This document shows positions 3,256 through 40,922 of a DNA stretch of 64,000 nucleotides, piece by piece. The DNA lies in assembly GCF_988243305.1 (NCBI RefSeq), contig NZ_OZ547136.1; one strand, 5' to 3'. The notes beneath the pieces are model-generated. The model did no database searches, was not told the origin of the DNA, and saw only the letters and a list, made by a program, of their open reading frames with translations. Position 1 is the stretch's first letter. Every line of letters starts with the position of its first letter. A program made the translations under genes and the position numbers.

Positions 3256-3260
3256 AAAAC

Positions 3261-3296
3261 GATCGATAAAACAGGTATTGATCGTTGCTATCGATC
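3261..3296. promoter_or_regulatory. three clustered GATC (Dam) sites; agn43 Dam/OxyR phase-variation region
   Basis: GATC at 3261-3264, 3280-3283 and 3293-3296 within 36 bp, about 220 bp upstream of the flu ATG; matches the known three-GATC OxyR operator architecture of agn43. Confidence 0.7.
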
Positions 3297-3513
3297 GTTT
3301 ATAGTGGTTAATGGTCTGCGAAAAGGCAGCTGAATCTCTTCATCATGCAGAACGGAATTGCACACAACGGACTGATACTTCTCTGGCGGATGAGAGAGGG
3401 GAAGCATTTATGTCCGGGAAAAACCACTTTATCTGAGCATGCTGTTTTGTACCTGCCGGTATCCACATTTGTGGGTACCGGCTTTTTTATTCACCCTCTG
3501 TAAGGAAAAGCTG

Positions 3514-6500
3514 ATGAAACGACATCTGAACACCAGCTACAGGCTGGTATGGAATCACATTACGGGCACCCTGGTGGTGGCCTCCGAACTGGCCCGCTCA
3601 CGGGGAAAACGCGCTGGTGTGGCGGTTGCGCTGTCTCTTGCTGCTGTCACATCAGTCCCGGCACTGGCTGCTGACAAGGTTGTACAGGCGGGAGAAACCG
3701 TGAACGACGGAACACTGACAAATCATGACAACCAGATTGTCCTCGGTACGGCCAACGGAATGACCATCAGTACCGGTCTGGAGTATGGGCCGGATAACGA
3801 GGCCAATACCGGCGGACAATGGATACAAAATGGCGGTATCGCCAACAACACTACTGTCACCGGTGGTGGTCTTCAGAGAGTGAATGCCGGAGGAAGCGTT
3901 TCAGACACGGTTATCAGTGCCGGAGGCGGACAGAGCCTTCAGGGGCAGGCAGTGAACACCACTCTGAACGGCGGTGAGCAGTGGGTACATGAAGGCGGGA
4001 TTGCAACGGGTACCGTCATTAATGAGAAGGGCTGGCAGGCCATCAAATCCGGCGCAGTGGCAACCGACACGGTTGTGAATACCGGCGCGGAAGGGGGACC
4101 GGATGCGGAAAATGGTGATACCGGGCAGACCGTCTACGGAGATGCCGTACGCACCACCATCAATAAAAATGGTCGTCAGATTGTGGCTGCTGAAGGAACG
4201 GCAAATACCACTGTGGTTTATGCCGGCGGCGACCAGACTGTACATGGTCACGCACTGGATACCACGCTGAATGGGGGGTACCAGTATGTGCACAACGGCG
4301 GTACGGCGTCTGGCACTGTTGTAAACAGTGACGGCTGGCAGATTGTCAAAAATGGGGGTGTGGCCGGGAATACCACCGTTAATCAGAAGGGCAGACTGCA
4401 GGTGGACGCCGGTGGTACAGCCACGAATGTCACCCTGAAGCAGGGCGGCGCACTGGTTACCAGTACGGCTGCAACCGTTACCGGCATAAACCGCCTGGGA
4501 GCATTCTCTGTTGTGGAGGGTAAAGCTGATAATGTCGTACTGGAAAATGGCGGACGCCTGGATGTGCTGACCGGACACACAGCCACTAATACCCGCGTGG
4601 ATGATGGCGGAACGCTGGATGTCCGCAACGGTGGCACCGCCACCACCGTATCCATGGGAAATGGCGGTGTACTGCTGGCCGATTCCGGTGCCGCTGTCAG
4701 TGGTACCCGGAGCGACGGAAAGGCATTCAGTATCGGAGGTGGTCAGGCGGATGCCCTGATGCTGGAAAAAGGCAGTTCATTCACGCTGAACGCCGGTGAT
4801 ACGGCCACGGATACCACGGTAAATGGCGGACTGTTCACCGCCAGGGGCGGCACACTGGCGGGCACCACCACGCTGAATAACGGCGCCATACTTACCCTTT
4901 CCGGGAAGACGGTGAACAACGATACCCTGACCATCCGTGAAGGCGATGCACTCCTGCAGGGAGGCTCTCTCACCGGTAACGGCAGCGTGGAAAAATCAGG
5001 AAGTGGCACACTCACTGTCAGCAACACCACACTCACCCAGAAAGCCGTCAACCTGAATGAAGGCACGCTGACGCTGAACGACAGTACCGTCACCACGGAT
5101 GTCATTGCTCAGCGCGGTACAGCCCTGAAGCTGACCGGCAGCACTGTGCTGAACGGTGCCATTGACCCCACGAATGTCACTCTCGCCTCTGGTGCCACCT
5201 GGAATATTCCCGATAACGCCACGGTGCAGTCGGTGGTGGATGACCTCAGCCATGCCGGACAGATTCATTTCACCTCCACCCGCACAGGGAAGTTCGTACC
5301 GGCAACCCTGAAAGTGAAAAACCTGAACGGACAGAATGGCACCATCAGCCTGCGTGTACGCCCGGATATGGCACAGAACAATGCTGACAGACTGGTCATT
5401 GACGGTGGCAGGGCAACCGGAAAAACCATCCTGAACCTGGTGAACGCCGGCAACAGTGCGTCGGGGCTGGCGACCAGCGGTAAGGGTATTCAGGTGGTGG
5501 AAGCCATTAACGGTGCCACCACGGAGGAAGGGGCCTTTATCCAGGGGAATAAGCTGCAGGCCGGTGCCTTTAACTACTCCCTCAACCGGGACAGTGATGA
5601 GAGCTGGTATCTGCGCAGTGAAAATGCTTATCGTGCAGAAGTCCCCCTGTATGCCTCCATGCTGACACAGGCAATGGACTATGACCGGATTCTGGCAGGC
5701 TCCCGCAGCCATCAGACCGGTGTAAGCGGTGAAAATAACAGCGTCCGTCTCAGCATTCAGGGCGGTCATCTCGGTCACGATAACAACGGCGGTATTGCCC
5801 GTGGAGCCACGCCGGAAAGCAGCGGCAGCTATGGCTTCGTCCGTCTGGAGGGTGACCTGCTCAGAACAGAGGTTGCCGGTATGTCTGTGACCGCGGGGGT
5901 ATATGGTGCTGCTGGCCATTCTTCCGTTGATGTTAAGGATGATGACGGCTCCCGTGCCGGCACGGTCCGGGATGATGCCGGCAGCCTGGGCGGATACCTG
6001 AATCTGATACACAACGCCTCCGGCCTGTGGGCTGACATTGTGGCCCAGGGAACCCGCCACAGCATGAAAGCCTCATCGGACAATAACGACTTCCGCGTCC
6101 GGGGCTGGGGCTGGCTGGGTTCGCTGGAAACCGGTCTGCCCTTCAGTATCACTGACAATCTGATGCTGGAGCCGCAACTGCAGTACACCTGGCAGGGACT
6201 CTCCCTGGATGACGGCCAGGATAACGCCAGTTATGTGAAGTTCGGGCATGGCAGTGCACAACATGTGCGTGCCGGCTTCCGTCTGGGCAGCCACCACGAT
6301 ATGAACTTTGGTAAAGGCACCTCATCCCGTGACACCCTGCGCGGCAGTGCCAAACACAGTGTGCGTGAACTGCCGGTGAACTGGTGGGTACAGCCTTCTG
6401 TTATCCGCACCTTCAGCTCCCGGGGGGGCATGAGCATGGGTACAGCCGCAGCCGGCAGTAACATGACGTTCTCACCGTCACAGAATGGTACGTCACTGGA

Positions 6501-6633
6501 CCTGCAGGCCGGACTGGAAGCCCGTGTCCGGGAAAATATCACCCTGGGCGTTCAGGCAGGTTATGTCCACAGCGTCAGCGGCAGCAGCGCTGAAGGCTAT
6601 AACGGTCAGGCCACGCTGAATGTGACCTTCTGA
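3514..6633 (+). CDS. flu: antigen 43 self-associating autotransporter
   Basis: ORF 3439..6633; canonical Ag43 N-terminus MKRHLNTSYRLVWNHITGTLVVASELARS begins at ATG 3514 after aaggaaaag; long beta-helical passenger with repetitive G/T/N-rich repeats and C-terminal beta-barrel ending in TLNVTF. Confidence 0.9.
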   Translation: MKRHLNTSYRLVWNHITGTLVVASELARSRGKRAGVAVALSLAAVTSVPALAADKVVQAGETVNDGTLTNHDNQIVLGTANGMTISTGLEYGPDNEANTGGQWIQNGGIANNTTVTGGGLQRVNAGGSVSDTVISAGGGQSLQGQAVNTTLNGGEQWVHEGGIATGTVINEKGWQAIKSGAVATDTVVNTGAEGGPDAENGDTGQTVYGDAVRTTINKNGRQIVAAEGTANTTVVYAGGDQTVHGHALDTTLNGGYQYVHNGGTASGTVVNSDGWQIVKNGGVAGNTTVNQKGRLQVDAGGTATNVTLKQGGALVTSTAATVTGINRLGAFSVVEGKADNVVLENGGRLDVLTGHTATNTRVDDGGTLDVRNGGTATTVSMGNGGVLLADSGAAVSGTRSDGKAFSIGGGQADALMLEKGSSFTLNAGDTATDTTVNGGLFTARGGTLAGTTTLNNGAILTLSGKTVNNDTLTIREGDALLQGGSLTGNGSVEKSGSGTLTVSNTTLTQKAVNLNEGTLTLNDSTVTTDVIAQRGTALKLTGSTVLNGAIDPTNVTLASGATWNIPDNATVQSVVDDLSHAGQIHFTSTRTGKFVPATLKVKNLNGQNGTISLRVRPDMAQNNADRLVIDGGRATGKTILNLVNAGNSASGLATSGKGIQVVEAINGATTEEGAFIQGNKLQAGAFNYSLNRDSDESWYLRSENAYRAEVPLYASMLTQAMDYDRILAGSRSHQTGVSGENNSVRLSIQGGHLGHDNNGGIARGATPESSGSYGFVRLEGDLLRTEVAGMSVTAGVYGAAGHSSVDVKDDDGSRAGTVRDDAGSLGGYLNLIHNASGLWADIVAQGTRHSMKASSDNNDFRVRGWGWLGSLETGLPFSITDNLMLEPQLQYTWQGLSLDDGQDNASYVKFGHGSAQHVRAGFRLGSHHDMNFGKGTSSRDTLRGSAKHSVRELPVNWWVQPSVIRTFSSRGGMSMGTAAAGSNMTFSPSQNGTSLDLQAGLEARVRENITLGVQAGYVHSVSGSSAEGYNGQATLNVTF

Positions 6634-18146: not shown

Positions 18147-18863
18147 CTACAGTTTAAATGACACACCAATGCGATAACTGTTTTCCGATAAATTATCTCT
18201 GCCGTTGTAAACACCCTGACGGTCAAGGTAGTCATATTCTATGTATGGCGTAATATCGGGCGTCATATGGTATTGTAGAACAAATGCATTTTCCGTCGCC
18301 CATTTCTTATGGTTTGCATAGCGATAATCGTTCTGTTTACTGTATAGCGTCGTTTGCCATGCGAAGGTGAAATCACTATTAATATGGTAAGTGACATATC
18401 CATCCCAACGATGAACGTTATCACGAGACATATCACCAGATAAGTCTTGTTGTCGGTAAGCTTTCCAGTCGTAACGATAGCGAATGCCAAAATTAAGATC
18501 TTTTGTCGCGTCCCAGGACAGTTTTACGTAGGGTCCGTAGCGTGTGCCATTGCTGCTAAAATGCGTTAACATTCCCGGGCGCACCGTCCATTGATCATCA
18601 AGTTTAATCGCGTAATTAACTTCAACCTGAACATCATTGAGTGCGGCATTTTCCTTTTTATTATCATGAATGGTATTCCAGGTATTACTTTCCATGCTTG
18701 CCCACCATCCATTTTGCCATCCCTCACTGACTTTGAGTCGAGTCTCATAGGCGTGGCTTCCACTACGATATCCACCACGTACGTCCAGTGTCGCAGCCTG
18801 AGAAATTAATGGGGACGAAAAGCACAGTAATAATACGCTAGAAAGTATTTTAGCCTTTTTCAT
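18147..18863 (-). CDS. nanC: N-acetylneuraminic acid outer membrane channel (KdgM family)
   Basis: ORF 18147..18872; MKKAKILSSVLLLCFSSPLISQA signal peptide from ATG 18863; beta-barrel-like alternating pattern. Confidence 0.85.
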   Translation of the reverse strand: MKKAKILSSVLLLCFSSPLISQAATLDVRGGYRSGSHAYETRLKVSEGWQNGWWASMESNTWNTIHDNKKENAALNDVQVEVNYAIKLDDQWTVRPGMLTHFSSNGTRYGPYVKLSWDATKDLNFGIRYRYDWKAYRQQDLSGDMSRDNVHRWDGYVTYHINSDFTFAWQTTLYSKQNDYRYANHKKWATENAFVLQYHMTPDITPYIEYDYLDRQGVYNGRDNLSENSYRIGVSFKL

Positions 18864-20316
18864 AAATTTCACTCATTTGTAGGATACAGAAAGCAATACA
18901 AAGCCCGCATAAACAATTAGCATTTATGTTGTGTAATATTTTTTTGCCAGGCTTATAGTGTCTTTGGCAACCGGTAGCTGTATTTTATATTTTTTGTATA
19001 ATATCTCCTGTGAAAAATCTCTTTCCACATTATTTAAATAAACAGAGGGCCAGATTAAATACCTGAGTATAAAATCTCTGCTGATGTTTAATTGATTTGA
19101 ATTTTCGTAAGCTATATCGCTTACTCAATCCATTTTACCCAGAGTCATAAAATAGAGTGTCTGTTGATCTCATTTTCATATTCCTTTCAGACTGAAGTGC
19201 GTTTTCATCACCCGATGAGAAAGAACTGAAGTGATGTTTGCCATAGATTACGAGATGCCCAGTCTCATTGACTATCGCGGTGCACCTTTATACCTGTTAT
19301 ACCAGATCAAAAATCACGCAATCCATACAACAAAACCAGATTTGCAATTCGTGTCACAAAATATGTCGATCTTTTCCTAAGAAGCAGATGCCATGTGAAG
19401 CCAGACGAACACTTGCATTGGTCTTCAAAAACTAAAGGTTTTCTTTTAACAATCTGTTTTGTAAATAATTTATTTAGAATCTAAACAAAGAAAGCTTTGC
19501 AAGCTAACTCAGTGAGCTTGGTGAAAATAAGTGTTTACCCGCCATCAGGCTGAGTATAATTCTCATCATGAAATATGTTTCTTGGTTTGTGGCTTGTAAC
19601 TGGTCACTCCTGATGTCGATCTGGAGAGGCTTGTTGATGTTGGTGTTTTCAGGATGATGTTTCACTTAGTTTGTTTGCCGTATCGCCCGGCGAATAGCTG
19701 TGATTGAGGAAGGTTTAAGTCGTAGTGACCAAAGCCATAGTTACCAACGGATGTAGATGAAAAAGCGTCGCCTGCGTTCCCCCATATCTCCAGGATAAAA
19801 GGGAATGTAACAATCTCATGGCCTAAGCTGACGAACCAGGCAGGAATAATCGCTAGGGATCTAAGAATTAGCATGATAATAGCCACTAAGAAATTACTGC
19901 GTTCCATGAAATAGCCATTTTGTGGCAAATGGAGTTGACTAATAATGTCATATGTGAGACGGCTAGTTGAACGAATATTAAATTTTGCTGAATTTTTTAT
20001 GTTGATTTTACTTGTTACAGAACATATCACATGATATATAGATAAGATTAGTTGCATTAATGATGAGGGTTATTATTAGATTCGTATCAGATTGATAAAT
20101 ATATAAAGGTACATAGCATGCAAGAGCATGGCGTTTGTATGGCAAAGTTATTATAAGTAACTATCGCTACTCCATTTAAGTTCGCTCAGAAGAACTGGTC
20201 CACTTACGTTAGTTATTAAGCAAACGTTCGCTTTTATAAACATAATCAGGATTAAAATGTTGGATTATTGCTAACCCAGCACAGCTAGTGCGCGTCTGTA
20301 ATTATAAGGGAAAACG

Positions 20317-20919
20317 ATGAAGAATAAGGCTGATAACAAAAAAAGGAACTTCCTTACCCATAGTGAAATCGAGTCACTCCTTAAAGCAGCAAATACCGGG
20401 CCTCATGCAGCACGTAATTATTGTCTGACTTTGCTTTGTTTTATTCATGGTTTCCGGGCGAGTGAAATTTGTCGATTGAGGATTTCGGATATTGATCTTA
20501 AGGCAAAGTGTATATATATCCATCGATTAAAAAAAGGCTTTTCAACAACGCACCCGCTATTGAACAAAGAAGTTCAGGCTTTAAAAAACTGGTTGAGTAT
20601 CCGTACTTCTTATCCGCATGCTGAGAGCGAGTGGGTATTTTTATCACGTAAGGGGAATCCGCTTTCTCGGCAACAGTTTTACCATATTATCTCGACTTCT
20701 GGTGGTAATGCCGGGTTGTCACTGGAGATTCATCCGCACATGTTACGCCATTCGTGTGGTTTTGCTTTGGCGAATATGGGAATAGATACGCGACTTATCC
20801 AGGATTATCTTGGGCATCGCAATATTCGTCATACTGTCTGGTATACCGCCAGCAATGCAGGGCGTTTTTACGGCATCTGGGATAGAGCCAGAGGACGACA
20901 GCGTCACGCTGTTTTATAG
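20317..20919 (+). CDS. fimB: type 1 fimbriae switch recombinase FimB (tyrosine recombinase)
   Basis: 200-aa ORF MKNKADNKKRNFLTHSEIESLL...; catalytic motif HPHMLRHSCGFALA...LGHRNIRHTVWYT. Confidence 0.95.
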   Translation: MKNKADNKKRNFLTHSEIESLLKAANTGPHAARNYCLTLLCFIHGFRASEICRLRISDIDLKAKCIYIHRLKKGFSTTHPLLNKEVQALKNWLSIRTSYPHAESEWVFLSRKGNPLSRQQFYHIISTSGGNAGLSLEIHPHMLRHSCGFALANMGIDTRLIQDYLGHRNIRHTVWYTASNAGRFYGIWDRARGRQRHAVL

Positions 20920-21396
20920 AGATAGTTGAGATACCAGGGATGGTGTTAAAAACTACATTATTCTTACGATATATCAAAAATGATTAACCATTTATTAATT
21001 GATGTTATTGTAAGTGTGATTCTTAATTATCATAATAAACATTAAGTTAACCATACCCATACAAAATCCAATGGTTTATGTTCTTCAAAATAAATAAACA
21101 AAATCATTCATAAATTTACACATCACTTAAATTCTCCTGTTTCCACACTTTTTTCTTTATTTTTTAAGCAACTGGAAGTTAATCTTCTGCAATCTATTGT
21201 TATATTGAATCAAATCAATGAAAATAGATGTTGTCACATCAGTGATATTTTATTTTTGTATGATATTTAATGTAATTGACTGATAGCCACATCACTTCGT
21301 GTGTGGTTATCTTTTTATCTATTGGGCTAATTTTGACCGATTGAGGTTTCCTATAGGTATTCATTCAAATATATCTCAGTCAGGAGTACTACTATT

Positions 21397-21993
21397 GTGA
21401 GTAAACGTCGTTATCTTACCGGTAAAGAAGTTCAGGCCATGATGCAGGCGGTTTGTTACGGGGCAACGGGAGCCAGAGATTATTGTCTTATTCTGTTGGC
21501 ATATCGGCATGGGATGCGTATTAGTGAACTGCTTGATCTGCATTATCAGGATCTTGACCTTAATGAAGGTCGAATAAATATTCGCCGACTGAAGAACGGA
21601 TTTTCTACCGTTCACCCGTTACGTTTTGATGAGCGTGAAGCCGTGGAACGCTGGACCCAGGAACGCGCTAACTGGAAAGGCGCTGACCGGACCGACGCTA
21701 TATTTATTTCTCGCCGCGGGAGTCGGCTTTCTCGCCAGCAGGCCTATCGCATTATTCGCGATGCAGGTATTGAAGCTGGAACCGTAACGCAGACTCATCC
21801 TCATATGTTAAGGCATGCTTGCGGTTATGAACTGGCGGAGCGTGGTGCAGATACTCGTTTAATTCAGGATTATCTCGGGCATCGAAATATTCGCCATACT
21901 GTGCGTTATACCGCCAGTAATGCTGCTCGTTTTGCCGGATTATGGGAAAGAAATAATCTCATAAACGAAAAATTAAAAAGAGAAGAGGTTTGA
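21397..21993 (+). CDS. fimE: type 1 fimbriae switch recombinase FimE (ON-to-OFF)
   Basis: 198-aa ORF from GTG 21397 with caggag RBS; paralogous to FimB (HPHMLRHACGYELA...LGHRNIRHTVRYT). Confidence 0.95.
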   Translation: MSKRRYLTGKEVQAMMQAVCYGATGARDYCLILLAYRHGMRISELLDLHYQDLDLNEGRINIRRLKNGFSTVHPLRFDEREAVERWTQERANWKGADRTDAIFISRRGSRLSRQQAYRIIRDAGIEAGTVTQTHPHMLRHACGYELAERGADTRLIQDYLGHRNIRHTVRYTASNAARFAGLWERNNLINEKLKREEV

Positions 21994-22040
21994 TTTAACT
22001 TATTGATAATAAAGTTAAAAAACAAATAAATACAAGACAA

Positions 22041-22049
22041 TTGGGGCCA
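22041..22049. repeat. fimS left inverted repeat (IRL)
   Basis: ttggggcca. Confidence 0.9.
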
Positions 22050-22059
22050 AACTGTCCAT

Positions 22060-22089
22060 ATCATAAATAAGTTACGTATTTTTTCTCAA
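22060..22089 (-). promoter_or_regulatory. fimA promoter inside fimS, here facing away from fimA (phase-OFF)
   Basis: On the minus strand: TTGAGA (22089-22084), 18-bp spacer, TATGAT (22065-22060), next to IRL; no comparable rightward promoter next to IRR. Confidence 0.55.
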
Positions 22090-22345
22090 GCATAAAAATA
22101 TTAAAAAACGACAAAAAGCATCTAACTGTTTGATATGTAAATTATTTCTCTTGTAAATTAATTTCACATCACCTCCGCTATATGTAAAGCTAACGTTTCT
22201 GTGGCTCGACGCATCTTCCTCATTCTTCTCTCCAAAAACCACCTCATGCAATATAAAAATCTATAAATAAAGATAACAATAGAATATTAAGCCAACAAAT
22301 AAACTGAAAAAGTTTGTGCGCGATGCTTTCCTCTATGAGTCAAAA

Positions 22346-22354
22346 TGGCCCCAA
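22346..22354. repeat. fimS right inverted repeat (IRR)
   Basis: tggccccaa, reverse complement of IRL. Confidence 0.9.
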
Positions 22355-22473
22355 ATGTTTCATCTTTTGGGGGAAAACTGTGCAGTGTTGGCAGTCAAAC
22401 TCGTTGACAAAACAAAGTGTACAGAACGACTGCCCATGTCGATTTAGAAATAGTTTTTTTAAAGGAAAGCAGC

Positions 22474-23022
22474 ATGAAAATTAAAACTCTGGCAATCGTT
22501 GTTCTGTCGGCTCTGTCCCTCAGTTCCGCAGCGGCTCTGGCCGATACTACGACGGTAAATGGTGGGACCGTTCACTTTAAAGGGGAAGTTGTTAACGCCG
22601 CTTGCGCAGTTGATGCAGGCTCTGCTGATCAAACCGTTCAGTTAGGGCAGGTTCGTACCGCATCGCTGGCACAAGAAGGAGCAACCAGTTCTGCTGTCGG
22701 TTTTAACATTCAACTGAACGATTGTGACACTACTGTTGCAGATAAAGCTGCTATTGCCTTCCTTGGTACCGCAATTGATGGAACTCATCCTAACGTATTA
22801 GCTTTGCAGAGTTCAGCTGCGGGTAGCGCAACAAAAGTTGGTGTGCAGATCCTGGACAGAACGGGTGCTGCGCTGGCGCTGGACGGTGCGACATTTAGTG
22901 CACAAACAACCCTGAATAACGGAACCAACACCATTCCGTTCCAGGCGCGTTATTTTGCAACCGGTGCCGCAACCCCAGGTGCTGCTAATGCGGATGCGAC
23001 CTTCAAGGTTCAGTATCAATAA
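22474..23022 (+). CDS. fimA: type 1 fimbrial major subunit
   Basis: ORF 22417..23022; [23 protein letters not shown] signal peptide from ATG 22474 after aaaggaaag. Confidence 0.95.
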
Positions 23023-23086
23023 CCTACCCAGGTTCAGGGACGTCATTACGGGCAGGGATGCCCACCCTTGTGCGATAAAAATAACG

Positions 23087-23626
23087 ATGAAAAGGAAGAG
23101 ATTATTTCTATTAGCGTCGTTACTGCCAATGTTTGCTCTGGCCGGAAATAAATGGAATACCACGCTGCCCGGCGGAAATATGCAATTTCAGGGCGTCATT
23201 ATTGCGGAAACTTGCCGAGTTGAAGCTGGTGATAAACAAATGACGGTCAATATGGGGCAAATCAGCAGTAACCGGTTTCATGCGGTAGGGGAAGATAGCG
23301 CACCGGTGCCTTTTGTTATTCATTTACGGGAATGTAGCACGGTGGTGAGTGAACGTGTGGGTGTGGCGTTTCACGGTGTCGCGGATGGTAAAAATCCGGA
23401 TGTGCTTTCCGTGGGAGAGGGGCCAGGGATAGCCACAAATATTGGCGTAGCGTTATTTGATGATGAAGGAAACCTCGTACCGATTAATCGTCCTCCAGCA
23501 AACTGGAAACGGCTTTACTCAGGCTCTACTTCGCTACATTTCATCGCCAAATATCGTGCTACCGGGCGTCGGGTTACTGGCGGCATCGCCAATGCCCAGG
23601 CCTGGTTCTCTTTAACCTATCAGTAA
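23087..23626 (+). CDS. fimI: fimbrial protein FimI
   Basis: ORF 22955..23626; [19 protein letters not shown] from ATG 23087; 179 aa. Confidence 0.9.
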
Positions 23627-23662
23627 TTGTTCAGCAGATAATGTGATAACAGGAACAGGACA

Positions 23663-24388
23663 GTGAGTAATAAAAACGTCAATGTAAGGAAATCGCAGGA
23701 AATAACATTCTGCTTGCTGGCAGGTATCCTGATGTTCATGGCAATGATGGTTGCCGGACGCGCTGAAGCGGGAGTGGCCTTAGGTGCGACTCGCGTAATT
23801 TATCCGGCAGGGCAAAAACAAGTGCAACTTGCCGTGACAAATAATGATGAAAATAGTACCTATTTAATTCAATCATGGGTGGAAAATGCCGATGGTGTAA
23901 AGGATGGTCGTTTTATCGTGACGCCTCCTCTGTTTGCGATGAAGGGAAAAAGAGAGAATACCTTGCGTATTCTTGATGCAACAAATAACCAATTGCCACA
24001 GGATCGGGAAAGTTTATTCTGGATGAATGTTAAAGCGATTCCGTCAATGGATAAATCAAAATTGACTGAGAATACGCTACAGCTCGCAATTATCAGCCGC
24101 ATTAAACTGTACTATCGCCCGGCTAAATTAGCGTTGCCACCCGATCAGGCCGCAGAAAAATTAAGATTTCGTCGTAGCGCGAATTCTCTGACGCTGATTA
24201 ACCCGACACCCTATTACCTGACGGTAACAGAGTTGAATGCCGGAACCCGAGTTCTTGAAAATGCATTGGTGCCTCCAATGGGCGAAAGCACGGTTAAATT
24301 GCCTTCTGATGCAGGAAGCAATATTACTTACCGAACAATAAATGATTATGGCGCACTTACCCCCAAAATGACGGGCGTAATGGAATAA
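23663..24388 (+). CDS. fimC: periplasmic fimbrial chaperone FimC
   Basis: 241-aa ORF; PapD-like chaperone. Confidence 0.9.
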   Translation: MSNKNVNVRKSQEITFCLLAGILMFMAMMVAGRAEAGVALGATRVIYPAGQKQVQLAVTNNDENSTYLIQSWVENADGVKDGRFIVTPPLFAMKGKRENTLRILDATNNQLPQDRESLFWMNVKAIPSMDKSKLTENTLQLAIISRIKLYYRPAKLALPPDQAAEKLRFRRSANSLTLINPTPYYLTVTELNAGTRVLENALVPPMGESTVKLPSDAGSNITYRTINDYGALTPKMTGVME

Positions 24389-24454
24389 CGCAGGGGGAAT
24401 TTTTCGCCTGAATAAAAAGAATTGACTGCCGGGTGATTTTAAACCGGAGGAATA

Positions 24455-27091
24455 ATGTCATATCTGAATTTAAGACTTTACCAGCGAAACACACAATGCT
24501 TGCATATTCGTAAGCATCTTTTGGCTGGTTTTTTTGTCCGGCTCTTTGTCGCCTGTGCTTTTGCCGCACAGGCACCTTTGTCATCTGCCGAACTCTATTT
24601 TAATCCGCGCTTTTTAGCGGATGATCCCCAGGCTGTGGCCGATTTATCGCGTTTTGAGAATGGGCAAGAATTACCGCCAGGGACGTATCGTGTCGATATC
24701 TATTTGAATAATGGTTATATGGCAACGCGTGATGTCACATTTAATACGGGCGACAGCGAACAAGGGATTGTTCCCTGCCTGACACGCGCGCAACTTGCCA
24801 GTATGGGGCTGAATACGGCTTCTGTCTCCGGTATGAATCTGCTGGCGGATGATGCCTGCGTGCCATTAACCTCAATGATCCATGACGCTACTGCGCATTT
24901 AGATGTTGGTCAGCAGCGACTCAACCTGACGATCCCTCAGGCATTTATGAGTAATCGCGCGCGTGGATATATTCCTCCTGAGTTGTGGGATCCCGGTATT
25001 AATGCCGGATTGCTCAATTATAATTTCAGCGGAAATAGTGTACAGAATCGGATTGGGGGTAACAGCCATTATGCATATTTAAACCTACAGAGTGGGTTAA
25101 ATATTGGTGCGTGGCGTTTACGCGACAATACCACCTGGAGTTATAACAGTAGCGACAGTTCATCAGGTAGCAAAAATAAATGGCAGCATATCAATACCTG
25201 GCTTGAGCGAGACATAATTCCGTTACGTTCCCGGCTGACGCTGGGTGATGGTTATACCCAGGGCGATATTTTCGATGGTATTAACTTTCGCGGCGCACAA
25301 TTGGCCTCAGATGACAATATGTTACCCGATAGCCAAAGAGGATTTGCCCCGGTGATCCACGGTATTGCTCGTGGTACTGCACAGGTCACTATTAAACAAA
25401 ATGGGTATGACATTTATAATAGTACGGTGCCACCGGGGCCTTTTACCATCAACGATATCTATGCCGCAGGTAATAGTGGTGACTTGCAGGTAACGATTAA
25501 AGAGGCTGACGGCAGCACGCAGATCTTTACCGTACCCTATTCGTCAGTCCCGCTTTTGCAACGGGAAGGACATACTCGTTATTCCATTACGGCAGGAGAA
25601 TACCGTAGTGGAAATGCGCAGCAGGAAAAACCTCGCTTTTTCCAGAGTACATTACTCCACGGCCTTCCGGCTGGCTGGACAATATATGGTGGAACGCAAC
25701 TGGCGGATCGTTATCGTGCTTTTAATTTCGGTATCGGGAAAAACATGGGGGCACTGGGCGCTCTGTCTGTGGATATGACGCAGGCTAATTCCACACTTCC
25801 CGATGACAGTCAGCATGACGGACAATCGGTGCGTTTTCTCTATAACAAATCGCTCAATGAATCAGGCACGAATATTCAGTTAGTGGGTTACCGTTATTCG
25901 ACCAGTGGGTATTTTAATTTCGCTGATACAACATACAGTCGAATGAATGGCTACAACATCGAAACACAGGATGGTGTTATTCAGGTTAAGCCGAAATTCA
26001 CCGACTATTACAATCTCGCTTATAACAAACGCGGGAAATTACAACTCACCGTTACTCAGCAACTCGGGCGCACATCAACACTGTATTTGAGTGGTAGCCA
26101 TCAAACTTATTGGGGAACGAGTAATGTCGATGAGCAATTCCAGGCTGGTTTAAATACTGCATTCGAAGATATCAACTGGACGCTCAGCTATAGCCTGACG
26201 AAAAACGCCTGGCAAAAAGGACGGGATCAGATGTTAGCGCTTAACGTCAATATTCCTTTCAGCCACTGGCTGCGTTCTGACAGTAAATCTCAGTGGCGAC
26301 ATGCCAGTGCCAGCTACAGCATGTCACACGATCTCAACGGTCGGATGACCAATCTGGCCGGTGTATACGGTACGTTGCTGGAAGACAACAACCTCAGCTA
26401 TAGCGTGCAAACCGGCTATGCCGGGGGAGGCGATGGTAATAGCGGAAGCACAGGCTACGCCACGCTGAATTATCGCGGTGGTTACGGCAATGCCAACATC
26501 GGTTACAGCCATAGCGATGATATTAAGCAGCTCTATTATGGAGTCAGCGGTGGGGTACTGGCTCATGCCAATGGCGTAACGCTGGGGCAGCCGTTAAACG
26601 ATACGGTGGTGCTTGTTAAAGCGCCTGGCGCAAAAGATGCAAAAGTCGAAAACCAGACGGGGGTGCGTACCGACTGGCGCGGTTATGCCGTGCTGCCTTA
26701 TGCCACTGAATATCGGGAAAACAGAGTAGCGCTGGATACCAATACCCTGGCTGATAACGTCGATTTAGATAACGCGGTCGCTAACGTTGTTCCCACTCGT
26801 GGGGCGATAGTGCGAGCAGAGTTTAAAGCGCGCGTTGGGATAAAACTGCTCATGACGCTAACCCACAATAATAAGCCGCTGCCGTTTGGGGCGATGGTGA
26901 CATCAGAGAGTAGCCAGAGTAGCGGCATTGTTGCGGATAATGGTCAGGTTTACCTCAGCGGAATGCCTTTAGCGGGAAAAGTTCAGGTGAAATGGGGAGA
27001 AGAGGAAAATGCTCACTGTGTCGCCAATTATCAACTGCCACCAGAGAGTCAGCAGCAGTTATTAACCCAGCTATCAGCTGAATGTCGTTAA
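24455..27091 (+). CDS. fimD: outer membrane fimbrial usher FimD
   Basis: 878-aa ORF MSYLNLRLYQRNTQCLHIRKH...; usher-size protein. Confidence 0.95.
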   Translation: MSYLNLRLYQRNTQCLHIRKHLLAGFFVRLFVACAFAAQAPLSSAELYFNPRFLADDPQAVADLSRFENGQELPPGTYRVDIYLNNGYMATRDVTFNTGDSEQGIVPCLTRAQLASMGLNTASVSGMNLLADDACVPLTSMIHDATAHLDVGQQRLNLTIPQAFMSNRARGYIPPELWDPGINAGLLNYNFSGNSVQNRIGGNSHYAYLNLQSGLNIGAWRLRDNTTWSYNSSDSSSGSKNKWQHINTWLERDIIPLRSRLTLGDGYTQGDIFDGINFRGAQLASDDNMLPDSQRGFAPVIHGIARGTAQVTIKQNGYDIYNSTVPPGPFTINDIYAAGNSGDLQVTIKEADGSTQIFTVPYSSVPLLQREGHTRYSITAGEYRSGNAQQEKPRFFQSTLLHGLPAGWTIYGGTQLADRYRAFNFGIGKNMGALGALSVDMTQANSTLPDDSQHDGQSVRFLYNKSLNESGTNIQLVGYRYSTSGYFNFADTTYSRMNGYNIETQDGVIQVKPKFTDYYNLAYNKRGKLQLTVTQQLGRTSTLYLSGSHQTYWGTSNVDEQFQAGLNTAFEDINWTLSYSLTKNAWQKGRDQMLALNVNIPFSHWLRSDSKSQWRHASASYSMSHDLNGRMTNLAGVYGTLLEDNNLSYSVQTGYAGGGDGNSGSTGYATLNYRGGYGNANIGYSHSDDIKQLYYGVSGGVLAHANGVTLGQPLNDTVVLVKAPGAKDAKVENQTGVRTDWRGYAVLPYATEYRENRVALDTNTLADNVDLDNAVANVVPTRGAIVRAEFKARVGIKLLMTLTHNNKPLPFGAMVTSESSQSSGIVADNGQVYLSGMPLAGKVQVKWGEEENAHCVANYQLPPESQQQLLTQLSAECR

Positions 27092-27100
27092 GGGGGCGTG

Positions 27101-27631
27101 ATGAGAAACAAACCTTTTTATCTTCTGTGCGCTTTTTTGTGGCTGGCGGTAAGTCACGCTTTGGCTGCGGATAGCACGATTACTATCCGCGGCTATGTCA
27201 GAGATAACGGCTGTAGTGTGGCCGCTGAATCAACCAATTTTACTGTTGATCTGATGGAAAACGCGGCGAAGCAATTTAACAACATTGGCGCGACGACTCC
27301 TGTCGTTCCATTTCGTATTTTGCTGTCACCCTGTGGTAATGCCGTTTCTGCCGTAAAAGTTGGGTTTACCGGTGTTGCAGATAGCCACAATGCCAACCTG
27401 CTTGCACTTGAAAATACGGTGTCAGCGGCTGCGGGACTGGGAATACAGCTTCTGAATGAGCAACAAAATCAGATACCCCTTAATGCCCCATCGTCCGCGA
27501 TTTCGTGGACGACCCTGACGCCGGGTAAACCAAATACGCTGAATTTTTACGCCCGGCTAATGGCGACACAGGTGCCTGTCACTGCAGGGCATATCAATGC
27601 CACGGCTACCTTCACTCTTGAATATCAGTAA
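27101..27631 (+). CDS. fimF: fimbrial minor subunit FimF
   Basis: ORF 27098..27631; ATG at 27101 ([22 protein letters not shown]). Confidence 0.9.
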
Positions 27632-27643
27632 CTGGAGATGCTC

Positions 27644-28147
27644 ATGAAATGGCGCAAACGTGGGTATTTATTGGCGGCAATATTGGCGCTCGCAAGTGCG
27701 ACGATACAGGCAGCCGATGTCACCATCACGGTGAACGGTAAGGTCGTCGCCAAACCGTGCACGGTTTCCACCACCAATGCCACGGTAGATCTCGGCGATC
27801 TTTATTCTTTCAGTCTGATGTCTGCCGGGGCGGCATCGGCCTGGCATGATGTTGCGCTTGAGTTGACTAATTGTCCGGTGGGAACGTCGAGGGTCACTGC
27901 CAGCTTCAGCGGGGCAGCCGACGGTACCGGATATTATAAAAATCAGGGGACCGCGCAAAACATCCAGTTAGAGCTACAGGATGACAGTGGCAACACATTG
28001 AATACTGGCGCAGCCAAAACAGTTCAGGTGGATGATTCCTCACAATCAGCGCACTTCCCGTTACAGGTCAGAGCATTGACGGTAAATGGCAGAGCCACTC
28101 AGGGAACCATTCAGGCAGTGATTAGCATCACCTATACCTACAGCTGA
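27644..28147 (+). CDS. fimG: fimbrial minor subunit FimG
   Basis: ORF 27638..28147; ATG 27644 (MKWRKRGYLLAAILALASA) with ggag 6 nt upstream. Confidence 0.9.
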   Translation: MKWRKRGYLLAAILALASATIQAADVTITVNGKVVAKPCTVSTTNATVDLGDLYSFSLMSAGAASAWHDVALELTNCPVGTSRVTASFSGAADGTGYYKNQGTAQNIQLELQDDSGNTLNTGAAKTVQVDDSSQSAHFPLQVRALTVNGRATQGTIQAVISITYTYS

Positions 28148-28166
28148 ACCCGAAGAGATGATTGTA

Positions 28167-29069
28167 ATGAAACGAGTTATTACCCTGTTTGCTGTACTGC
28201 TGATGGGCTGGTCGGTAAATGCCTGGTCATTCGCCTGTAAAACCGCCAATGGCACCGCTATCCCTATTGGCGGTGGCAGCGCCAATGTTTATGTAAACCT
28301 TGCGCCCGCCGTGAATGTGGGGCAAAACCTGGTCGTAGATCTTTCGACGCAAATCTTTTGCCATAACGATTACCCGGAAACCATTACAGACTATGTCACA
28401 CTGCAACGAGGCTCGGCTTACGGCGGCGTGTTATCTAATTTTTCCGGGACCGTAAAATATAGTGGCAGTAGCTATCCATTTCCGACCACCAGCGAAACGC
28501 CGCGCGTTGTTTATAATTCGAGAACGGATAAGCCGTGGCCGGTGGCGCTTTATTTGACGCCTGTGAGCAGTGCGGGCGGGGTGGCGATTAAAGCTGGCTC
28601 ATTAATTGCCGTGCTAATTTTGCGACAGACCAACAACTATAACAGCGATGATTTCCAGTTTGTGTGGAATATTTACGCCAATAATGATGTGGTGGTGCCT
28701 ACTGGCGGCTGTGATGTTTCTGCTCGTGATGTCACCGTTACTCTGCCGGACTACCCTGGTTCAGTGCCAATTCCTCTTACCGTTTATTGTGCGAAAAGCC
28801 AAAACCTGGGGTATTACCTCTCCGGCACAACCGCAGATGCGGGCAACTCGATTTTCACCAATACCGCGTCGTTTTCACCAGCGCAGGGCGTCGGCGTACA
28901 GTTGACGCGCAACGGTACGATTATTCCAGCGAATAACACGGTATCGTTAGGAGCAGTAGGGACTTCGGCGGTAAGTCTGGGATTAACGGCAAATTACGCA
29001 CGTACCGGAGGGCAGGTGACCGCAGGGAATGTGCAATCGATTATTGGCGTGACTTTTGTTTATCAATAA
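28167..29069 (+). CDS. fimH: mannose-specific fimbrial tip adhesin FimH
   Basis: ORF 28158..29069; MKRVITLFAVLLMGWSVNAWS signal peptide then FACKTANGTAIPIGGG; 300 aa. Confidence 0.95.
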   Translation: MKRVITLFAVLLMGWSVNAWSFACKTANGTAIPIGGGSANVYVNLAPAVNVGQNLVVDLSTQIFCHNDYPETITDYVTLQRGSAYGGVLSNFSGTVKYSGSSYPFPTTSETPRVVYNSRTDKPWPVALYLTPVSSAGGVAIKAGSLIAVLILRQTNNYNSDDFQFVWNIYANNDVVVPTGGCDVSARDVTVTLPDYPGSVPIPLTVYCAKSQNLGYYLSGTTADAGNSIFTNTASFSPAQGVGVQLTRNGTIIPANNTVSLGAVGTSAVSLGLTANYARTGGQVTAGNVQSIIGVTFVYQ

Positions 29070-29139
29070 AGAAATCACAGGGCATTGCTAATGCAGGTAC
29101 GCAATATTACCTGAAGCTAAAACCTGCACGTTAGCCCTT

Positions 29140-29177
29140 TGTAGGCCAGATAAGACGCGTCAGCGTCGCATCTGGCA
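29140..29177. repeat. REP-like palindromic element
   Basis: gtaggccagataagacgcgtcagcgtcgcatctggcat, typical REP composition between convergent fimH and gntP. Confidence 0.55.
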
Positions 29178-29209
29178 TAAACAAAGCGCACTTTACCGAC
29201 AATCCGAAC

Positions 29210-29243
29210 AGAGCCTGCCAATGGCAGGCTCTGGTGTTCTTTT
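29210..29243. terminator. hairpin terminator between convergent fimH and gntP
   Basis: gagcctgcc...ggcaggctc stem followed by tggtgttctttt. Confidence 0.5.
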
Positions 29244-30585
29244 ACGCTACCATGCTAATAATCAGCACAATAATCAGCCCAACCACGGAGTTGACCAGCT
29301 CCAGCAGACCCCAGGTTTTCAACGTGTCTTTTACTGACAGGTCAAAGTAACCTTTGAACAACCAGAAAGATGCATCGTTAATGTGGGTGAGGGTGTTGGA
29401 ACCCGCAGCCGTCGCCAGTACCAGCAGCGCCGGATTCACGCCAACCAGCTGACCAGTTGCTGGATCAAGGATTGCTGCACTGATAATCCCGGCAGCGGTC
29501 ATCGCCGAAACGACACCCTGACCCGTCGCCAGACGAATCAGTACGGTGATCAGCCATGCCATGATGTAGGGCGAGATATTGCCGTGGGACATCAACATGC
29601 CGATGGTGTCGCCAATGCCGGTGTCGATGATGGTCTGCTTCAGCACGCCACCCGCACCGATGATCAGAATCACCATTGCAATACTCTTCACCGCGCTTTC
29701 AAAAGCGTTCATCACCCACTGCATGTCATGACCACGCGCGGTACCAAAGAGTACGAATGCAACCACCATCGCAATAAACATCGCAATCGGCGAGGAACCA
29801 ATAAAGTTAACCACTTCCCAGGCAGGGGTATCTTTTACCAGCCAGATATTGGCGATGGTGGTGGAGATCATAATGATCGCTGGGATCAGCGGCACCAGAA
29901 TCGAAACGCCGAAAGAGGGCAGATTATTCATATCAACCGGTTGATCTGCTTTCAGGAATGATGGCGTTGGGCGCTCAAGATTGCCGAGGAACTTCGGCAG
30001 GATCAGACCTGCGCAGATGACACTTGGGATCGTCACCAGTACGCCATAGATATAAACCATCCCCATATCTGCGCCATAAGCATTCACCAGCGCCACCGGA
30101 CCCGGCTGCGGTGGGAACAGTGAATGTGCGGTAGTGGCAGCTGCTACTGCCGGGATCGCCAGTTTCAGGAACGGAATTTTAGCTTCGGCGGCAATAACAA
30201 TAACCAGCGGCGCTAACATGATAAAGGCCACTTCATAGAACATCGCCAGACCGAAAATCAGGCCGATGATAATCACCGACAGCTGTACATAGCGCAGACC
30301 GAGACGCGCCAGCAGCGTATGTGCTATCTGGTGAGCCGCGCCGGAGTCGACCATCAATTTACCGATGACCGCACCGAACACCACGATGATAGCCAGTTCC
30401 CCCAGCGTGTTGCCGAAGCCCGCTTTCATGGTGTGCAGCAGCGACATCAAATCCATGCCCGCCAGCATCCCGACGGACAGCGCCGCCACCAACAAAGCCA
30501 CCATTGAATTGATTTTGAACTTCAAATTCAGTACCAGCATCAGACCAATGCCGAATACCACCCAGAGAATGTTAAGCACATGCAT
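29242..30585 (-). CDS. gntP: gluconate/fructuronate transporter (GntP family)
   Basis: 447-aa polytopic membrane ORF; recognised GntP sequence. Confidence 0.9.
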
Positions 30586-30642
30586 AACGTTTTACCTTAC
30601 CTGGTTGAACCGTTGTTATTTTGGGCGACATGTTATGTAAAT

Positions 30643-30758
30643 TGGTCAACCATTGTTGCGATGAATGTCACATCCTCTGATCAATAACCATCGATTACCC
30701 TTTGCTGCAATTTGCAGCAACAACCAGGAGAGTGAAATTCTTGTGATGTGGTTAACCA
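30643..30758. promoter_or_regulatory. uxuA control region with two TGGT-N2-ACCA palindromes (candidate UxuR/ExuR operators)
   Basis: tggtcaacca at 30643-30652 and the perfect palindrome tggttaacca at 30749-30758, followed by ttgaca at 30774-30779. Confidence 0.45.
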
Positions 30759-30924
30759 ATTTTAGATTTCGGGTTGACATGTCTTACCAAAAGGTAGAAC
30801 TTATACGCCATCTCATCCGATGCAACGCCACGGCTGCGGTCTGGTTGTTCATCCGGATACCTAAACAACTCCGGGGCTCCACGTCTCTTTGCTGTGGAAC
30901 CCACTATGTGAAAGAGGAAAAATC

Positions 30925-32109
30925 ATGGAACAGACCTGGCGCTGGTACGGCCCAAACGATCCGGTTTCTTTAGCTGATGTCCGCCAGGCGGGCGCAACTG
31001 GCGTGGTTACCGCGCTGCACCATATCCCGAACGGCGAAGTATGGTCCGTAGAAGAGATCCTCAAACGCAAGGCGATCGTTGAAGACGCAGGCCTGGTATG
31101 GTCTGTCGTAGAAAGCGTGCCAATTCACGAAGATATCAAAACCCACACTGGCAACTACGAGCAGTGGATCGCTAACTATCAGCAGACTCTGCGCAACCTG
31201 GCGCAGTGCGGCATTCGCACCGTGTGCTACAACTTCATGCCGGTGCTCGACTGGACCCGTACTGACCTCGAATACGTGCTGCCAGACGGCTCCAAAGCTC
31301 TGCGCTTCGACCAGATCGAATTCGCTGCATTCGAAATGCATATCCTGAAACGTCCAGGCGCGGAAGCGGATTACACCGAAGAAGAAATTGCTCAGGCAGC
31401 TGAACGCTTCGCGACTATGAGCGACGAAGACAAAGCGCGTCTGACCCGTAACATCATTGCCGGTCTGCCGGGCGCGGAAGAAGGGTATACCCTCGACCAG
31501 TTCCGTAAGCACCTGGAGCTGTACAAAGATATCGACAAAGCCAAACTGCGCGAAAACTTCGCTGTCTTCCTGAAAGCGATTATTCCGGTTGCCGAAGAAG
31601 TCGGCGTGCGTATGGCTGTTCACCCGGACGATCCGCCGCGCCCGATCCTCGGCCTGCCGCGCATTGTTTCCACCATTGAAGATATGCAGTGGATGGTTGA
31701 TACCGTAAACAGCATGGCGAACGGTTTCACCATGTGCACCGGTTCCTACGGCGTGCGTGCTGACAACGATCTGGTTGATATGATCAAGCAGTTCGGTCCG
31801 CGTATTTACTTCACCCATCTGCGTTCCACCATGCGTGAAGATAACCCGAAAACCTTCCACGAAGCGGCGCACCTGCACGGCGACGTTGATATGTACGAAG
31901 TGGTGAAAGCGATTGTGGAAGAAGAACACCGTCGTAAAGCGGAAGGCAAAGAAGACCTGATCCCGATGCGTCCGGACCACGGTCACCAGATGCTGGACGA
32001 CCTGAAGAAGAAAACCAACCCAGGTTACTCCGCAATTGGTCGTCTGAAAGGCCTGGCCGAAGTTCGCGGTGTCGAACTGGCGATCCAGCGCGCTTTCTTT
32101 AGCCGTTAA
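30925..32109 (+). CDS. uxuA: mannonate dehydratase
   Basis: ORF 30889..32109; [35 protein letters not shown] from ATG 30925 with agagg RBS; 394 aa. Confidence 0.95.
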
Positions 32110-32189
32110 TATCCACCGGCATGGCTGCGCGCCGTGCCGGTTCCTTCTTCCTTGCCGTCACTCTCTGAAGACGGATTCTGGAGTTTACG

Positions 32190-33650
32190 ATGACTACTAT
32201 TGTTGACAGCAATCTGCCGGTTGCCCGCCCGTCATGGGATCATTCTCGTCTGGAATCACGCATTGTGCATCTCGGTTGCGGGGCGTTTCACCGCGCGCAC
32301 CAGGCGCTGTATACCCATCATCTGCTGGAAAGCACCGACAGCGACTGGGGTATCTGCGAAGTTAACCTGATGCCAGGTAACGACCGCGTGCTGATCGAAA
32401 ACCTGAAAAAACAGCAACTGCTGTACACCGTGGCGGAAAAAGGCGCAGAAAGCACCGAGCTGAAAATTATCGGTTCGATGAAAGAAGCGCTGCATCCGGA
32501 AATCGACGGCTGCGAAGGTATTCTCAACGCGATGGCGCGTCCGCAGACGGCGATTGTCTCCCTGACGGTCACAGAGAAAGGTTATTGTGCCGATGCGGCA
32601 AGCGGTCAGTTGGATCTCAATAACCCGCTGATCAAGCACGATCTGGAAAACCCGACTGCGCCGAAGTCCGCGATTGGTTACATCGTCGAAGCCTTGCGTC
32701 TGCGTCGTGAAAAAGGGCTGAAAGCGTTTACGGTGATGTCCTGCGACAACGTGCGTGAAAACGGTCATGTGGCGAAGGTCGCGGTTCTGGGGCTGGCTCA
32801 GGCGCGTGATCCACAGCTGGCGGCATGGATTGAAGAGAACGTCACCTTCCCGTGCACCATGGTTGACCGCATCGTTCCGGCGGCGACGGCAGAAACCTTA
32901 CAGGAAATTGCTGACCAGCTGGGTGTTTACGACCCATGCGCCATTGCCTGCGAACCGTTCCGTCAGTGGGTGATTGAAGATAACTTCGTTAATGGTCGTC
33001 CGGACTGGGATAAAGTGGGCGCACAGTTCGTTGCAGACGTTGTGCCGTTCGAAATGATGAAACTGCGTATGCTGAACGGCAGCCACTCTTTCCTGGCGTA
33101 CCTCGGTTACCTCGGCGGCTATGAAACCATTGCCGACACCATGACTAACCCGGATTATCGCAAAGCGGCCTTCGCCCTGATGATGCAGGAACAAGCGCCA
33201 ACGCTGTCGATGCCGGAAGGTACAGACCTGAACGCCTATGCGACGCTGCTGATCGAGCGTTTCAGTAACCCGTCTCTGCGTCACCGTACCTGGCAGATTG
33301 CGATGGACGGCAGCCAGAAGTTACCGCAGCGTCTGCTGGATCCGGTGCGTCTGCACCTGCAAAACGGCGGTAGCTGGCGTCACCTGGCGCTGGGCGTGGC
33401 TGGCTGGATGCGTTACACCCAGGGCGTGGATGAGCAGGGTAAAGCTATTGACGTGGTCGACCCGATGCTGGCGGAGTTCCAGAAGATCAACGCGCAGTAT
33501 CAGGGCGCAGACCGCGTGAAAGCGCTGCTGGGCCTGAGCGGTATCTTTGCCGATGATCTGCCGCAGAATGCCGACTTTGTTGGCGCGGTGACGGCGGCAT
33601 ATCAGCAGCTGTGCGAACGCGGTGCGCGCGAGTGTGTGGCTGCGCTGTAA
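32190..33650 (+). CDS. uxuB: D-mannonate oxidoreductase (fructuronate reductase)
   Basis: 486-aa ORF; N-terminal Rossmann motif HLGCGAFHRAHQA. Confidence 0.95.
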   Translation: MTTIVDSNLPVARPSWDHSRLESRIVHLGCGAFHRAHQALYTHHLLESTDSDWGICEVNLMPGNDRVLIENLKKQQLLYTVAEKGAESTELKIIGSMKEALHPEIDGCEGILNAMARPQTAIVSLTVTEKGYCADAASGQLDLNNPLIKHDLENPTAPKSAIGYIVEALRLRREKGLKAFTVMSCDNVRENGHVAKVAVLGLAQARDPQLAAWIEENVTFPCTMVDRIVPAATAETLQEIADQLGVYDPCAIACEPFRQWVIEDNFVNGRPDWDKVGAQFVADVVPFEMMKLRMLNGSHSFLAYLGYLGGYETIADTMTNPDYRKAAFALMMQEQAPTLSMPEGTDLNAYATLLIERFSNPSLRHRTWQIAMDGSQKLPQRLLDPVRLHLQNGGSWRHLALGVAGWMRYTQGVDEQGKAIDVVDPMLAEFQKINAQYQGADRVKALLGLSGIFADDLPQNADFVGAVTAAYQQLCERGARECVAAL

Positions 33651-40217: not shown

Positions 40218-40802
40218 ATGGCAAAGTACAACGAAAAAGAGCTGGCGGATACGAGCAAGTTTTTAAGTTTTGTCCTCCGACACAAACCGGAGGCGATTGG
40301 TATCGTACTGGACCGTGAAGGATGGGCGGATATCGATAAGCTCATACTTTGTGCCCAAAAATCGGGCAAGCGGTTAACCCGTGCATTGCTGGATACCGTT
40401 GTCGCCACCAGCGATAAAAAGCGTTTTAGTTATTCCAGTGATGGTAGGTGCATTCGCGCGGTTCAGGGGCATTCGACTTCGCAGGTCGCCATTTCCTTTG
40501 CCGAAAAAACACCGCCACAGTTTCTTTACCACGGTACGGCAAGCCGTTTCCTTGACGAGATAAAAAAACAGGGGCTGATTGCAGGGGTGCGTCACTACGT
40601 ACATCTCTCTGCTGATGAAGCAACGGCACGCAAAGTGGGAGCAAGACACGGATCGCCGGTTATTTTAACCGTCAAAGCACAGGAAATGGCGAAACGAGGC
40701 CTCCCTTTCTGGCAAGCGGAAAACGGGGTCTGGCTGACATCAACGGTTGCTGTTGAGTTTCTTGAGTGGCCGTTCATGCCGGCTGGGGTACAAAAACAAT
40801 AA
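40218..40802 (+). CDS. kptA: RNA 2'-phosphotransferase (Tpt1/KptA family)
   Basis: 194-aa [42 protein letters not shown]...; Tpt1 motifs HGT and RHYVHLS. Confidence 0.9.
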
Positions 40803-40827
40803 ATTCAATATATTGCAGGGGTTATAT

Positions 40828-40856
40828 AGGCCTGATAAGCGCAGCGCATCAGGTAA
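40828..40856. repeat. REP-like element
   Basis: aggcctgataagcgcagcgcatcaggta, followed by hairpin aaggataccc...gggtatcctt at about 40880-40910. Confidence 0.45.
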
Positions 40857-40922
40857 TGTAGCGTTTGTTATCAGTCGGAAAGGATACCCTCGCACAAGGG
40901 TATCCTTAATAACCTACTAAAA

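Follow-up and report, generated by a model that had tools for sequence, protein, structure and literature searches.

Consensus FimH adhesin encoded by an intact fim locus, predicted to be a functional low-affinity mannose binder

The FimH adhesins of Escherichia coli form two major clades, and the FimH of strain K-12 is placed in the consensus clade "with A27V substitution" (Dreux et al. 2013, PMC3554634). The second clade carries N70S and S78N and belongs to phylogroup B2 in 24 of 25 strains; A27 is the consensus state in most natural variants, those of non-pathogens included, and V27 of K-12 is derived (PMC3554634). High binding to single mannose needs additional point mutations, and the binding by K-12 FimH is shear-dependent (Dreux et al., PMC3554634). 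The combination A27/S62/V163 is the most abundant one in nature (169 of 254 urine isolates and 28 of 33 faecal isolates), and it was of low affinity when tested in the UTI89 background (Kalas et al., PMC5302871); the roles of the mannose-pocket residues, of the tyrosine gate, and of I13 and I52 are described in the same work (PMC5302871). In the O157:H7 strains EDL933 and Sakai, FimH carries N135K and the switch region has lost 16 bp (PMC8605689).

The window analysed here is a 64,000-nucleotide stretch of contig NZ_OZ547136.1 (RefSeq assembly GCF_988243305.1). Its fimH coding sequence (28167..29069, + strand) is an uninterrupted open reading frame of 300 codons followed by a TAA stop, with 98.6% nucleotide identity to K-12 fimH and a product one amino acid apart. 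The listing of open reading frames also offers an in-frame ATG upstream, at 28158, which would give a 303-aa frame; position 28167 is the better start, because a 903-nt coding sequence is annotated in RefSeq for the nearest genomes and because a GAAGAG Shine-Dalgarno-like motif ends 9 nt 5' of this ATG.

The 300-aa precursor consists of a 21-residue signal peptide, MKRVITLFAVLLMGWSVNAWS (28167..28229, +), and a 279-aa mature chain, FACKTANG...VTFVYQ. Cleavage that leaves Phe1 at the N-terminus is predicted by identity with the precursors of chains that start at FACK. The first-pass annotation had numbered mature residues from F1 after a 21-aa signal peptide, and this numbering agrees with the structures: mature PDB chains, among them the 279-aa 1KLF_B, begin at FACK, and with the precursor chain 5MTS_A, of 300 aa, the alignment runs over residues 22-300.

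The lectin (mannose-binding) domain (28230..28703, +) comprises mature residues 1-158, as in the 158-aa PDB constructs (e.g. 1UWF_A), and holds all of the pocket residues; the pilin domain (28707..29066, +) comprises mature residues 160-279, and PDB 1ZE3_H aligns to residues 158-279. In Pfam, the FimH_man-bind profile (PF09160) was matched in full (profile 1-145; precursor residues 24-168) with 245.7 bits at a cut-off of 25, and the Fimbrial profile (PF00419) was matched at precursor residues 181-300 with 32.8 bits at a cut-off of 25.6. Aligned over its full length, the window FimH also covers the pilin domains found in 1KLF and 3JWN. A search of FimH against the NCBIfam profiles returned only sub-threshold matches to the YehD and FimI models; this is no evidence against the identity of the protein, since that library appears to hold no FimH HMM. 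No Rfam match at gathering thresholds was obtained in or near fimH, and no tRNA gene was found in the 64-kb window.

The exact 300-aa protein is present under FimH names on at least 1,000 contigs in a collection of 15 billion proteins. The nearest complete genomes annotate their fimH product as WP_000832227.1, and their genes translate to the window protein; fimH DNA was matched at an identity of at least 95% in 5,354 of the 5,426 complete RefSeq E. coli genomes. The identification is far beyond chance, given the full-length identity to named FimH proteins and these genome matches.

All eight residues of the mannose pocket that the first-pass annotation had listed as intact were confirmed by script, with the codons F1 TTC, N46 AAC, D47 GAT, D54 GAC, Q133 CAG, N135 AAC, D140 GAT and F142 TTC; the tyrosine gate (Y48 and Y137) is present, as are I13 and I52. 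Codon 135 (28632..28634, +) thus reads Asn, and the claim that this is not the inactive N135K-type allele of O157:H7 EDL933 and Sakai (PMC8605689, Table 1) holds. The sole amino-acid difference from K-12 MG1655 lies at codon 27 (28308..28310, +), which is GCC (Ala) in the window and GTC (Val) in K-12 (C vs T at gene nt 143). Codon 70 (28437..28439, +) is AAT (Asn) and codon 78 (28461..28463, +) is AGT (Ser), both in the consensus state; the S70/N78 clade, to which the PDB 3JWN group belongs, has Ser and Asn there. The further positions S62, G66, T158, V163 and R166 were read from the window protein, and residue 201 is T in both MG1655 and the window FimH.

Since the protein is the K-12 sequence with V27A and no other replacement, it corresponds to the consensus variant itself as this is defined in PMC3554634. 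Alignment with reference FimH, a check that the first-pass annotation had proposed, put the protein one amino acid from K-12. Judged from its sequence, the window FimH is the consensus, ancestral and commonest variant, and neither a member of the S70/N78 clade nor the N135K allele of O157.

The residues A27, N70 and S78 had been called correctly in the first-pass annotation (GCC, AAT and AGT); its mention of pathoadaptive alleles needs the refinement that this combination is no particular pathoadaptive one, being the ancestral consensus (PMC3554634). A high-affinity, shear-independent FimH of the pathoadaptive kind that is overrepresented among uropathogenic or Crohn's-associated strains of E. 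coli is a highly improbable reading of this gene. Some authors do call A27 pathoadaptive relative to V27 of K-12, a usage that is cited and disputed in PMC3554634; against it, A27 is the state of most natural variants, positions 62, 66, 70, 78, 158, 163 and 166 are as in K-12 with V27A as the sole change, and A27/S62/V163 is a low-affinity combination (PMC5302871). None of the affinity-raising substitutions that were checked is present in the window FimH.

At the nucleotide level the allele is less common than the protein. The exact 903-nt sequence occurs in none of the 5,426 complete RefSeq E. coli genomes, where the best match reaches 99.4% with five synonymous differences, and neither half of the gene was matched exactly in the same set. 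When the exact FimD of the window was used to retrieve the contigs that encode it, three draft or metagenome assemblies (GCA_012891955.1, GCA_051344385.1 and an ENA metagenome contig) were found to carry an identical fimH at all 903 positions, by which the notion that the allele is wholly absent from public data was ruled out. From the four nearest alleles the window allele differs at synonymous third positions only. It agrees throughout gene nt 1-431 with the allele of TUM14771 and NY1601 and throughout nt 319-854 with the allele of 19KM1831 and N3, and the synonymous base at nt 855 (codon T264) is unlike that of all six comparison alleles; apart from those of K-12 and 1297KP, the comparison alleles encode the window FimH protein. 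Two synonymous lineages appear to be combined in the window allele as an intragenic mosaic.

An apparent new allele of this kind might be made by errors of sequencing or assembly, as the count of 0 in 5,426 complete genomes and the base at nt 855, unlike that of all six comparison alleles, could suggest. We give this explanation next to no weight: the same allele, the base at nt 855 included, recurs in the three assemblies named above, and the differences from the four nearest alleles all fall on synonymous third positions. Because these three assemblies are independent, a sequencing error is very unlikely, and the altered codons that could have overturned the first-pass reading of the pocket are thereby set aside.

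The gene is the last of fimAICDFGH, adjoined by fimB, fimE and fimS, in a gene-by-gene match to the K-12 locus, and the neighbours of fimH in the annotations of NY1601 and 1297KP agree with this order. The other eight fim genes are all full length and without internal stops (all on the + strand). The recombinases FimB (20317..20919) and FimE (21397..21993) are identical in protein sequence to those of K-12. By comparison with the K-12 locus, fimI (23087..23626), the chaperone gene fimC (23663..24388), the usher gene fimD (24455..27091; its exact protein was also looked up, as described), fimF (27101..27631) and fimG (27644..28147) are intact. The major subunit gene fimA (22474..23022) is intact but variable, with 92.3% nucleotide identity and 14 amino-acid changes vs K-12; no other fim gene comes near it in divergence, and 61 differences from 1297KP fall in one 500-bp tile. 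In the fimH-gntP spacer (window positions ~29195-29212), two related loci (L009 and L012) are ~78 bases longer than the window.

The invertible switch fimS (22041..22354; 314 bp) is bounded by 9-bp inverted repeats, TTGGGGCCA at 22041-22049 and TGGCCCCAA at 22346-22354, and is collinear with the MG1655 reference. Its orientation was assigned by the published assay (PMC6727828), in which primers CMD1258 and CMD1259 yield a 650-bp product for digestion with HinfI, with fragments of 128 and 522 bp for ON and of 411 and 239 bp for OFF (PMC6727828). Such sizes assign ON or OFF only when the primer positions are known. In silico, the two primers anneal at 21927 and 22576, for an amplicon of 650 bp, which HinfI would cut into 411 and 239 bp as assembled and into 128 and 522 bp with fimS inverted. 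As the digest reproduces the published OFF pattern, fimS is OFF in the assembly, in an orientation that mirrors only the majority of the cells sequenced, and the assembled sequence thus represents non-expressing cells. The best sigma-70-like promoter in fimS, TTGAGA-18-TATGAT (22060..22089, - strand; 10 of 12 matches), faces fimE and points away from fimA; it is likely to be the fimA promoter, and this agrees with the OFF call from the HinfI digest.

The OFF orientation is the sole point in favour of a strain in which fimH is intact but silent, with type 1 fimbriae locked OFF as in O157:H7. We hold this to be improbable, because the MG1655 reference has fimS in the same orientation, both 9-bp repeats are intact in a switch of canonical length, and FimB and FimE are those of K-12. 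The fimE-fimA spacer differs from that of K-12 by a single 1-nt indel only, so the 16-bp deletion of O157 is absent. Switching of fimS looks possible, as its inverted repeats and both recombinases are intact.

We therefore read the locus as a whole, with a probability of about 0.93, as a consensus fimH within an intact fimB-fimE-fimS-fimAICDFGH locus, for which a functional adhesin of low affinity is predicted. A FimH that would be functional and mannose-sensitive in switch-ON cells, as the first-pass annotation had expected of the adhesin's function, is the best-supported reading of the gene, because the protein is one residue (A27V) from a FimH that has been crystallised and studied functionally, and because it is the commonest natural variant.

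In the established model of type 1 fimbriae, a donor strand from FimG completes the pilin domain of FimH. By what is known of the family, the FimH precursor of the window would be exported by means of its 21-aa signal peptide, folded by FimC and installed at the fimbrial tip by the FimD usher, and the FimG donor strand would complete the pilin domain here as well. The lectin domain would then bind terminal alpha-D-mannose through the pocket (F1, N46, D47, D54, Q133, N135, D140 and F142) and the Y48/Y137 gate with I13 and I52. Expression would depend on fimS, such that the adhesin would be made only in phase-ON cells.

The window FimH, with A27/S62/V163, would reside mostly in the low-affinity 'tense' state, a prediction made because the allele has this combination and lacks the affinity-raising substitutions that were checked. 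Its binding to single mannose would be weak under static conditions and stronger under shear (catch bond); the expressed adhesin would still give mannose-sensitive agglutination of yeast or erythrocytes. Weak, shear-dependent binding to single mannose is the most likely behaviour of the window FimH, as such binding is described for FimH variants without affinity-raising mutations; the low-affinity class is extrapolated from measurements in UTI89, an S70/N78 background, to a protein with N70/S78.

The surroundings of the fim locus have been described as a recombination hotspot. To the left of fimB, the window has only 8 mismatches to E. coli 1297KP in 19,931 nt, and 99.9% identity with strain B7A; from position 19932 rightward, its divergence from 1297KP is 1-3%. 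Against the drafts GCA_051344385.1 and ERZ27246331, 31 mismatches fall within 18549-19873, whereas the 13.2 kb of 19874-33091 contain only 2. These opposite mismatch patterns place a sharp recombination junction between nanC and fimB, at 19873-19932, an interval of ~60 bp located about 385-445 bp upstream of fimB. We lean towards a history in which the fim-gntP-uxu segment was joined to a different background by homologous recombination within this interval, with the intragenic mosaic of fimH in addition. In that event, clonal typing by fimH would no longer track the chromosomal background of this lineage, and the junction upstream of fimB would add a further example of mosaic ancestry at fim.

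In its left 19.9 kb, the window contains agn43, the island genes cbtA, cbeA, yeeS and yeeT, and nanM and nanC. A 1064-aa open reading frame (3439-6633, +), which adjoins the cbtA/cbeA/yeeS/yeeT island, is the gene annotated as Ag43 autotransporter adhesin (agn43) in 1297KP, and an Rfam match to IS102 RNA (69.9 bits; 3259-3495, +) lies at its 5' end. To the right of fimB, none of the 5,426 complete genomes matches the window at >99.3%, and over 32000-56000 none matches at >98.9%. 1297KP lacks the stretch at ~40700-46000, whose counterpart in NY1601 is iatD, annotated as an inverse autotransporter gene of ~5.2 kb; the flanking region at 46-48.5 kb has only about 80-82% identity with 1297KP. For 46000-64000, where a type I restriction-modification region lies, the best identity is 98.1%, and at least 80% of it is covered in only 47 of the 5,426 complete genomes.

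For the strain, this analysis predicts complete, apparently switchable type 1 fimbriae with a standard FimH, of neither the inactive O157 type nor the pathoadaptive type of high affinity. Such an assignment to a FimH class is useful for predicting the adhesion phenotype or the sensitivity to mannoside inhibitors, though it is unsurprising to a specialist. The consensus FimH is already known, well described and ordinary, and the importance of finding it here is small beyond correct annotation.

Set against the described systems, the window FimH is separated from the structural references by few residues. It is one amino acid from the PDB group of 1KLF, 1QUN and 4XO9 (V27, the K-12 mature sequence), two from the group of 3JWN and 4XOD (A27, S70, N78), with N70/S78 in the window and an identical pocket, and three from the group of 9CCS (A27, A62, S70, N78); no full-length PDB chain is identical to it, the closest being 99.6% identical. 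The candidate view of 3JWN (strain F18) as a pure consensus FimH was ruled out, as the alignment shows S70/N78 in the 3JWN group. With the S70/N78 clade, that of LF82 and CFT073, the window protein has A27 and the pocket in common, whereas S70/N78 are absent from it. With O157:H7 EDL933 and Sakai it shares the gene and the locus; their N135K and their 16-bp deletion in the switch region are both absent from the window.

K-12 MG1655 is nearer. Its FimH (b4320, NP_418740.1) shares 299 of 300 residues, the exception being V27 in K-12 and A27 in the window, and the two genes have 13 nucleotide differences, 12 of which are synonymous; the pocket, the disulfide cysteines, the domain layout, the organisation of the locus and the orientation of fimS (in the reference sequence) are alike. 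Nearest is the consensus FimH (WP_000832227.1; UniProt Q83TY4; 'Variant 2' of PMC3554634), with which the window protein is identical in all 300 residues and which has the same position in the operon; the consensus alleles of the nearest complete genomes are 5-8 synonymous sites apart from that of the window and encode the same protein.
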